A DNA stretch of 64,000 nt from Promethearchaeia archaeon (GTDB taxonomy: Archaea > Asgardarchaeota > Lokiarchaeia > Sigyniarchaeales > SOKP01), in NCBI GenBank assembly GCA_029856145.1, contig JAHQWK010000012.1, positions 32,001-96,000 on the forward strand, read 5' to 3'. Position numbers and translations under genes: made by a program. Positions 59,871 through 61,334 of the stretch are shown piece after piece; position 1 is the first letter of the stretch, and every line of letters starts with the position of its first letter. The notes under the pieces were generated by a model. It made no database searches, was not told where the DNA came from, and saw only the letters and a program-made list of their open reading frames with translations.

Positions 59871-61334
59871 TTGACAAAAACTAAAGAAAAGCAAAAGAAA
59901 CAGAAGCCGACAAAACAAGAAGTTCCAGATACCAAATTAAATATTATTAACGCAGTGGTTTTGAGCATATTCGATGAAAATGGACCAACACCGAAAATTT
60001 TTTGGCCTGATGATTTAGATGAACAAGCTGGGCTTTTAATTGCTATGAAAACTATTAGTTTATTAATGGGTGATGCAACATATCAAGATGGAATAGGAAC
60101 AGAAGGAGTTAACTATTTTGGAATACTTCCCTTCCCTGATTTAAAATTAAATGGATTAACTTATTTTTTCTTAATACCTGATGATAATGCTCGGGGTAAA
60201 GCTTTAGCGGCAACAATAACAGTTTTAATTGATGAAAAGAATAAAGTATTCTTCTATGAAAATATGAAGTATTTAAGAGTTATAATGGATAAAGCGGCTA
60301 CTCAAATTCAATTCAATAAAGACCGTGATGAACGAGAAATAATTATAGATGAGTTAAGAGAAGAGCTCGTCGAATTCACCAAAGAATTAAAAGATCCCTT
60401 TTCCACGAAACGACAATTGAAAATATTACTAACTGGATTAGATAAAGCAGGAAAAACGAGTTTTATGCTAGGGATAAACAGGAAATATTCTGAAATTATA
60501 AAATCCATGCCAACTAAAGGTGTTGAAAGGACAGAGGAAAACATATTTGACGAGCAAAATTCCCAAATTTCTTTGTGGGACCTTGGAGGTCAAGAAAAAT
60601 ATAGAGAAAGATATCTCGAACAAAGTGAAGTTTATTTATACAATATTGATTTAATGTTTTTTTTCATTGATATTCAAGACGTAGATAGGATCGAGAAGGC
60701 ACTTAGTTTATTTAGAAAGATTTTAAATATATTGATTGAATTTGATGAATTTCCCCCAATTGTTGTTTGTCTTAATAAATTTGATCCAGATCTTAAAGGT
60801 TCTAAAGAAATTTTTAAGAATTTAGAAGTAATAGCAGATGCGATTAAGGAAAATTCTGAGAGATTTTTTATTAAGATTTTCCAAACAACAATTTTTGATC
60901 ATTGGAGTCTTATTTCAGCATATTCTTTTGGTCTATCTCAATTAAGCCCTAATCGTGAATTATTTAGGAATCAATTGAAAAAATTTGCTAAAAAAACTAA
61001 TTCAGATGCAATATTACTACTTAACGAGAATGGTTTAATATTATCAAATTTTTCTAAAACTGATATCTCTGGAAAGTTATTTGAGATAATTGCCCCGTAC
61101 TACAAAAATCTTTATAAAACATTCGAAGAATTTAAATTACTGGAACAGGATTTTATAGTATCTTCCGGAATCGCTGATGAGTCTAAAAAAGTGATTTTCA
61201 AAAAAATTACTGTTGAAAAGTACAATTTATATCTCCTTCTATTCTTAGAAAAGTCTTTAGAAATTGAGAAAATTGAAAAAAATTTACCTGAGTTTTCAAA
61301 AAATCTCATTGAATTAATTCATACATACATTTAA
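59871..61334 (+). CDS. uDENN/longin-like + Arf/Rag-like GTPase + roadblock domain protein
   Basis: FDENGPTP, DDNARG, GLDKAGKTS, PTKG, WDLGGQ, NKFD, TTIFD, LSPNRELF...NGLILS. Confidence 0.85.
   Translation: MTKTKEKQKKQKPTKQEVPDTKLNIINAVVLSIFDENGPTPKIFWPDDLDEQAGLLIAMKTISLLMGDATYQDGIGTEGVNYFGILPFPDLKLNGLTYFFLIPDDNARGKALAATITVLIDEKNKVFFYENMKYLRVIMDKAATQIQFNKDRDEREIIIDELREELVEFTKELKDPFSTKRQLKILLTGLDKAGKTSFMLGINRKYSEIIKSMPTKGVERTEENIFDEQNSQISLWDLGGQEKYRERYLEQSEVYLYNIDLMFFFIDIQDVDRIEKALSLFRKILNILIEFDEFPPIVVCLNKFDPDLKGSKEIFKNLEVIADAIKENSERFFIKIFQTTIFDHWSLISAYSFGLSQLSPNRELFRNQLKKFAKKTNSDAILLLNENGLILSNFSKTDISGKLFEIIAPYYKNLYKTFEEFKLLEQDFIVSSGIADESKKVIFKKITVEKYNLYLLLFLEKSLEIEKIEKNLPEFSKNLIELIHTYI

Follow-up and report, generated by a model that had tools for sequence, protein, structure and literature searches.

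Does a Rag-like GTPase of Asgard archaea carry its own GTPase-activating protein (GAP), and would it then act alone or with a partner? The question is raised by a gene at positions 59871-61334 (+ strand) of a 64,000-nucleotide stretch of DNA, here called the window, from a Lokiarchaeia genome of the order Sigyniarchaeales (contig JAHQWK010000012.1, positions 32,001 to 96,000). The gene has a TTG start and encodes a protein of 487 amino acids (aa) with a longin domain, a Rag-like GTPase (G) domain and a roadblock. A preliminary description, made from the sequence alone, had seen in it a Rag GTPase and its folliculin (FLCN)-type GAP joined in cis, with R108 as the arginine finger. The fusion of a folliculin-type fingered longin to a Rag-like GTPase is real and well supported. 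This fingered (R-type) protein would be a Rag-like GTPase switch carrying its own GAP, and would work as a heterodimer with a fingerless twin (50633-52135, - strand). We put the probability of this full heterodimer model at about 0.5.

The open reading frame and the R108 codon (60192-60194) are as first described. The longin, of the FLCN/SMCR8/NPRL2 type, covers residues 22-174 (59934-60392) according to the structural model, a fold search and Pfam Folliculin. In the model, a linker of ~8 residues (173-180; 60387-60410) connects the last longin helix to strand 1 of the G domain. The Rag-like G domain, assigned by Pfam, covers residues 181-357 (60411-60941) and contains the catalytic Q241. The C-terminal roadblock, a Rag-type dimerisation module recognized by its secondary structure and its match to RagA/Gtr1, covers residues ~360-487 (60948-61331); all of these features are on the + strand. 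The full-length model has a predicted local distance difference test (pLDDT) score of 79.5 and a predicted template modelling (pTM) score of 0.73. The domain order, together with orthology to WP_147663355.1 of the cultured Promethearchaeum syntrophicum MK-D1, identifies the protein as an Asgard LGR (longin-GTPase-roadblock) protein. Homologues of the protein are named Promethearchaeota or Lokiarchaeota, which places the window in a Lokiarchaeial Asgard archaeon. No DENN module follows the longin in the 487-aa protein, since the G domain starts 8 residues downstream and the remainder is roadblock; the protein thus has a folliculin-type longin but is not a folliculin.

The longin is modelled at pLDDT 92, with the topology beta-beta-alpha-beta-beta-beta-alpha-alpha. 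Among 48,161 chains searched, its top fold match is the Asgard longin 8YQG (Z 18.9). It also matches Lst4 (Z 13.5, root-mean-square deviation (rmsd) 2.8, 129 aligned), the C9orf72-SMCR8 chain 7o2w_A (Z 13.0, rmsd 2.8, 143 aligned), FLCN (Z 12.8, rmsd 2.5, 134 aligned), the GATOR1 chain 8fw5_B (Z 11.7, rmsd 3.1, 134 aligned), FNIP2 (Z 11.1) and DENND1A (Z 10.8), with generic longins (TRAPP, adaptin, SNARE) at Z 9.6 or below. As modelled, the N-terminal domain is a uDENN-type longin, nearest to the GAP-type longins. The Pfam Folliculin match at residues 96-154 is sub-threshold (E 0.0018); the same profile is matched by 26/37 and 21/64 longin-family members (best 3e-7 and 8e-7), and three orthologues of the 487-aa protein pass its curated cut-off. 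The GP motif G38-P39 (59982-59987, + strand), in FDENGPTP, aligns with SMCR8 G68-P69 in a sequence-profile comparison (E 0.4), is invariant in the Loki longin alignment A1, and is the motif that Novak et al. describe in these longins (PMC12290439). Fold search, Pfam and GP motif thus agree with the longin type first proposed, and the FLCN FFIKDSLARG and SMCR8 FSEQVGP motifs quoted in its favour match the PDB sequences. Profile searches of PDB sequences with Loki-only longin alignments (A1, A5, A8) retrieve only 8YQG and a weak match to the SMCR8 N-terminus, and FLCN is reached only once distant Asgard longins are added. Leads from the ESM Atlas (NPR2 family, 19% of one cluster) all scored below 0.9 and were not used.

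Is R108 an arginine finger? It is encoded by CGG within DDNARGKA, between strands 4 and 5 of the modelled longin, which is where a preprint on Avl9 places the fingers of longin GAPs (10.64898/2026.01.05.697756). A profile that includes the 487-aa protein and distant Asgard relatives aligns this ARG with A163-R164-G165 of human FLCN (E 0.25), the best non-Asgard match of that profile among 177,635 PDB sequences. The Pfam Folliculin profile (positions 49-105) backs the same alignment, as does the fold, so that the equivalence of R108 and FLCN R164, weak in its E-value, is supported. None of the profile searches of the PDB aligned SMCR8 R147 or the NPRL2 finger at the level of residues. All orthologues compared (86/86, with identities as low as ~35%) have R108, while the adjoining residues 105-106 vary; across 77 loci it is encoded by all six arginine codons. 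Among 50 related longins from ten genomes of other Asgard families, at ~20% identity, 37 keep RG in the loop. The counts for the 86 orthologues and the 50 related longins, together with the 67 twin-type proteins discussed below, are the unbiased ones; alignments A1, A5 and A9 were picked rich in fingered members, and invariance counts taken from them are not independent. The conservation that the preliminary description proposed to survey is therefore found, and GAP activity of R108 is probable.

A non-catalytic R108 is unlikely, although most longins are GEF (guanine nucleotide exchange factor) or adaptor platforms (PMC10933270). The longin would then be a binding or GEF platform, and ARG would owe its conservation to folding, to contacts within a dimer or to a bound ligand. 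In keeping with this, many other longin positions are invariant among close orthologues, and the solved Asgard longin 8YQG has no finger. Yet ARG and GP are the sole motifs kept across the whole Asgard longin family and on to FLCN, and the Arg is not needed for folding, because the fold is preserved in the twin and in 8YQG, both of which lack it.

By its architecture and its fold, the GTPase half of the fusion is Rag-like. Its G boxes G1-G5 are all intact (GLDKAGKTS, PTKG, WDLGGQ, NKFD, TTIFD), as claimed at the outset, and Pfam Gtr1_RagA (PF04670) matches residues 184-396 at 90 bits (cut-off 22), against 68 bits for Arf. The RagA-like junction first described is real: residues 178-395 align with human RagA through TSIWD...QLIPN...DEVLLF (phmmer, E ~4e-12). 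The best PDB sequence matches are two Loki Rag-like proteins, followed by RagA and Arf at near-equal E-values, and the G domain and roadblock of the model match RagA/Gtr1 over ~318 columns (Foldseek, RagA E 3e-17). The domain assignment therefore supports a Rag-like GTPase joined to a GAP-type longin.

When the host genome is searched with the longin, three further copies are found in the window: the twin and two longin-Rab-like fusions. The twin (500 aa), the proposed partner, is an orthologue of MK-D1 WP_147663364.1 and has the same longin-Rag-like-roadblock layout. Its longin is homologous to that of the R-type protein (hhalign 99.95%) and keeps GP; its beta4-beta5 loop is shorter and lacks ARG, and its G4 is atypical (SKGD). 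ARG is absent in 67/67 of the fingerless twin-type proteins. Fingered and fingerless Rag fusions form sister groups in a quick tree (Shimodaira-Hasegawa-like approximate likelihood ratio test 91; the tree was drawn from its midpoint and left one long row unplaced), which is consistent with duplication of the whole fusion followed by loss of the finger in one copy. A Pfam PD-(D/E)XK match on the N-terminal domain of the twin is below the cut-off, is contradicted by the clear longin homology and was set aside.

The existence of the twin makes a heterodimer likelier as the mechanism than a simple fusion acting in cis, and the 'in cis' of the preliminary description holds in the sense of one polypeptide only. 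Rag GTPases dimerise through their roadblocks. In the model that we propose, the two roadblock domains would pair as in RagA-RagC, and the two longins would pair, one catalytic and one non-catalytic, as in FLCN-FNIP, NPRL2-NPRL3 and SMCR8-C9orf72, forming a bowl in which a G domain could dock. R108 would be supplied from one side only, so that one G domain would be driven to GDP and the dimer would take up an asymmetric nucleotide state. The arrangement has a precedent in SMCR8-C9orf72-ARF1, where the GTPase sits in the bowl of two longins, one of which gives the finger while the other holds the GTPase; in the longin GAPs known so far, the GTPase has to be held by a second longin (PMC8213707). 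The R-type protein and the twin between them contain just this set of components. The target is slightly more likely to be the G domain of the finger-bearing chain itself. The catalytic Gln is retained in 49/52 R-type proteins and 52/60 twins; the twins of MK-D1 and Harpocratesius have lost it and their R-type partners have kept it, a hint, from the aligned sequences, that the finger serves the G domain of its own chain.

Complex prediction with the full-length R-type protein, the twin, GTP and Mg gives a score of 0.51 against 0.01 for the best control; at least 89% of the contacts agree between runs, and the partners have a pLDDT of at least 77. In calibration, 58/80 solved pairs and 2/110 mismatched ones attained the mark; at scores of 0.60 or below, only 7 solved pairs and both mismatched pairs did so. 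The prediction thus lends weak support to the heterodimer of R-type protein and twin, which, taken as a part of the model, we consider somewhat favoured.

Several points weigh against the model. The direct FLCN sequence alignment (E 0.25) is by itself not significant. The complex prediction may have passed because the proteins resemble Rag dimers of solved structure, and a linker of ~8 residues may rule out action in cis. The structures of related Loki Rag-like proteins show a homotetramer (8YL2) and a monomer (8ZLA), and heterodimerisation therefore cannot be taken for granted. Some incomplete metagenome-assembled genomes have one gene alone (G215 and G225 the twin, G049, G109 and G138 the R-type). 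Gene order was considered as evidence of partnership and rejected, since unrelated neighbours are equally conserved and synteny is uninformative.

R108 could be a true finger in a protein that acts by itself, as a cis monomer or a two-finger homodimer, with the twin serving some other function. The Avl9 preprint (10.64898/2026.01.05.697756) provides examples of longin/DENN GAPs that are monomeric and have a finger between beta4 and beta5, Tran et al. modelled homodimers of longin-GTPases (PMC10933270), the monomer is itself modelled at the pTM given above, and a few genomes have the R-type gene only. We nevertheless consider this fairly unlikely, given that the fingerless sister is retained near 1:1 across the order, even when unlinked, and that complex prediction weakly supports the heterodimer.

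The finger could also serve another GTPase. The longin would then be a GAP for the 321-aa plain Rag-like GTPase-roadblock protein encoded in the same cluster (54753-55718, + strand), an alternative partner or substrate, or for a free Rab- or Arf-like GTPase, and the fused module would regulate or position the GAP in a GTPase cascade. The genome encodes dozens of small GTPases, the 321-aa Rag-like gene is in the cluster at 58/80 loci, and in most Asgard lineages the same longin occurs without any GTPase and therefore must act in trans there. Against this, the longin has repeatedly been fused straight before Rag-like and Rab-like G domains with short linkers, which points to fused clients, and the fused G domain retains its catalytic Gln; a client elsewhere thus seems improbable. 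Under the heterodimer model the client would be one of the two fused G domains.

How widespread is the pair? With 151 genomes of the phylum searched, the R-type protein is confined to two families of the host's order. In a class-wide sample, 109/121 genomes have a match, all of them in the host's order, and 91 of the 109 have at least two, nearly always two. Seven genomes of other Loki orders give no match at the same threshold, one of them having many longin-Rab fusions instead. In MK-D1 the genes for WP_147663355.1 and WP_147663364.1 are 10 kb apart, and in Harpocratesius repetitus both genes are present 81 kb apart. In a single-scaffold genome of the same genus, the twin occurs without the R-type gene and with a different upstream neighbourhood (G215:C1:2780000-2800000, L141), which may be a real loss or an assembly gap. 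In the ten genomes from other Asgard families, no G domain follows any of the 50 related longins within the loci retrieved. Because it is found in one Lokiarchaeia order only, the triple fusion looks lineage-specific rather than ancestral, and the preliminary suggestion that the catalytic logic of mTORC1 nutrient signalling predates eukaryotes is not supported in the form given. The link to mTORC1 was overstated and is an analogy only, because no PI3K/TOR-family kinase (PF00454) is matched in the host genome (97% complete). This agrees with Liu et al. (10.1101/2020.10.19.343400), who report that Asgards have proteins resembling FLCN and NPRL2 but lack a TOR kinase.

The two halves of this result have already been published separately, the three-domain layout by Tran et al. 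(2024) and the fingered Asgard longins by Novak et al. (2025). Tran et al. list WP_147663355.1 and WP_147663364.1 as LGR proteins, classed as Rag-like (PMC10933270); these MK-D1 orthologues have the same three domains as the R-type protein and its twin. Their text, as far as searched, contains neither the GP motif nor a longin finger, does not divide fingered from fingerless proteins, and presents homodimer models only; it notes that longin-GTPases may need GAPs, which are hard to match. Novak et al. describe Asgard FLCN/SMCR8-type longins with a GP motif and an arginine finger, with the hypothesis that they are GAPs (PMC12290439). The longin described here is of the same class, with both motifs and the same hypothesis; unlike in their account, as far as its main text goes, it is fused to Rag-like and Rab-like G domains. 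GTPase fusions are absent from that main text, which poses the choice between ArfR and Rag GTPases as clients without deciding it. We found no paper in which the finger is connected with the fusion, or in which the pair of fingered and fingerless proteins is described, in a literature search that was incomplete, and no publications on 8YL2, 8ZLA, 8YQG or LokiRag in the literature searched; the depositors of 8YL2, 8ZLA and 8YQG may have overlapping work that is unpublished or paywalled.

Among eukaryotic systems, FLCN-FNIP2 (Lst7-Lst4, the RagC/D GAP), NPRL2-NPRL3 (GATOR1) and SMCR8-C9orf72 share with the Loki protein the longin fold, the GP motif and ARG at FLCN R164, and likely also the pairing of a catalytic with a non-catalytic chain. 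Unlike these systems, the 487-aa protein has no DENN and carries GAP domain and GTPase on one covalent chain, and there is neither a lysosome nor, as far as found, a TOR kinase. Its G domain, C-terminal roadblock and TSIF/WD-type G5 junction resemble those of Rag/Gtr (RagA/B-RagC/D) and of the Loki Rags 8YL2, 8ZLA and 9M28, at ~21-29% identity. It differs from these in the extra N-terminal longin, in the Arf-like wording of G1 and G3, and in belonging to a pair that goes back to a separate duplication within a single Loki order. That the two Loki genes are a complete analogue of FLCN-FNIP (or NPRL2-NPRL3) plus the Rag-heterodimer module, with one finger setting the asymmetric state, is tentative and somewhat doubtful.

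The LGR family places two matching open questions on one chain, the GAPs for Asgard Rag-like GTPases (Tran et al., 2024) and the clients of fingered longins (Novak et al., 2025), and it provides a natural negative control in the fingerless twin. Since the family is present in cultured MK-D1, the question is directly testable. Together, the two proteins may amount to a self-contained form of the eukaryotic switch in nutrient signalling that can be put to the test. If the model is true, this would be the first archaeal longin arginine-finger GAP to be shown, and longin arginine-finger chemistry and Rag-type clients would already have been coupled in Asgard archaea. A positive result would establish longin arginine-finger chemistry on Rag-type GTPases in Asgard archaea; it would not show mTORC1 signalling there, given the confinement to one Loki order and the lack of a detected TOR.

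The same longin has other carriers, and the fusion is therefore not a unique Rag-GAP Rosetta stone: fingered longins are also fused to Rab-like GTPases (in the same window), to roadblocks and to membrane receptors. The two longin-Rab-like fusions of the window, each of 347 aa and both on the - strand, are a longin with GP and an RRGG finger (40839-41882) and its tandem paralogue, which has Lys where the finger would be (SKGG; 39631-40674). By their motifs, they are possibly a second catalytic/non-catalytic pair, on Rab-like GTPases. Among representatives at 50% identity, the longin occurs with a Rag-like G domain (with or without finger), with a Rab-like G domain (28/31 with Arg) or with no G domain. 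G155, a genome of another Loki order, encodes ~ten longin-Rab-like fusions.

The GP/ARG longin also forms the cytoplasmic C-terminus of giant proteins of up to ~10,000 aa, many named Hodarchaeales by their sources (P0306-P0421; loci L178, L188-L194, L202-L222). A transmembrane helix is predicted upstream of the longin in 116/116 of them (~50 residues in the long ones) and an RG-type pattern is matched in 115/116; some have LamG, DUF2341 or InlB-B repeats. These proteins resemble surface receptors that have a GAP domain on the intracellular side. A roadblock-longin protein of MK-D1 (L123:1486-2289) matches the sequence of 8YQG; it belongs to the same family and lacks the finger, while ARG is retained in the majority of its relatives. 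The host genome encodes another five, more distant, members of the longin family (G000:C6:8705-9070, C20:84211-84516, C11:31730-32053, C9:43530-43820 and C9:95108-95383), one of them in a 1142-aa frame.

The cluster is flanked in most loci (67/80) by a protein with a zinc ribbon and a roadblock (55912-56982, + strand), and in 69/80 by a 211-aa protein that reads like a longin/roadblock with a winged helix (62788-63423, + strand); both are possible Ragulator-like or output components. Directly upstream of the R-type gene lies a 600-aa protein with an ATP-cone and an NrdD-like region (57917-59719, + strand; Pfam 108-595), in which no obvious catalytic cysteine or glycyl-radical motif is seen. 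Many related loci retain only a short piece, on the other strand, and the 600-aa protein may be a degenerate class III reductase.
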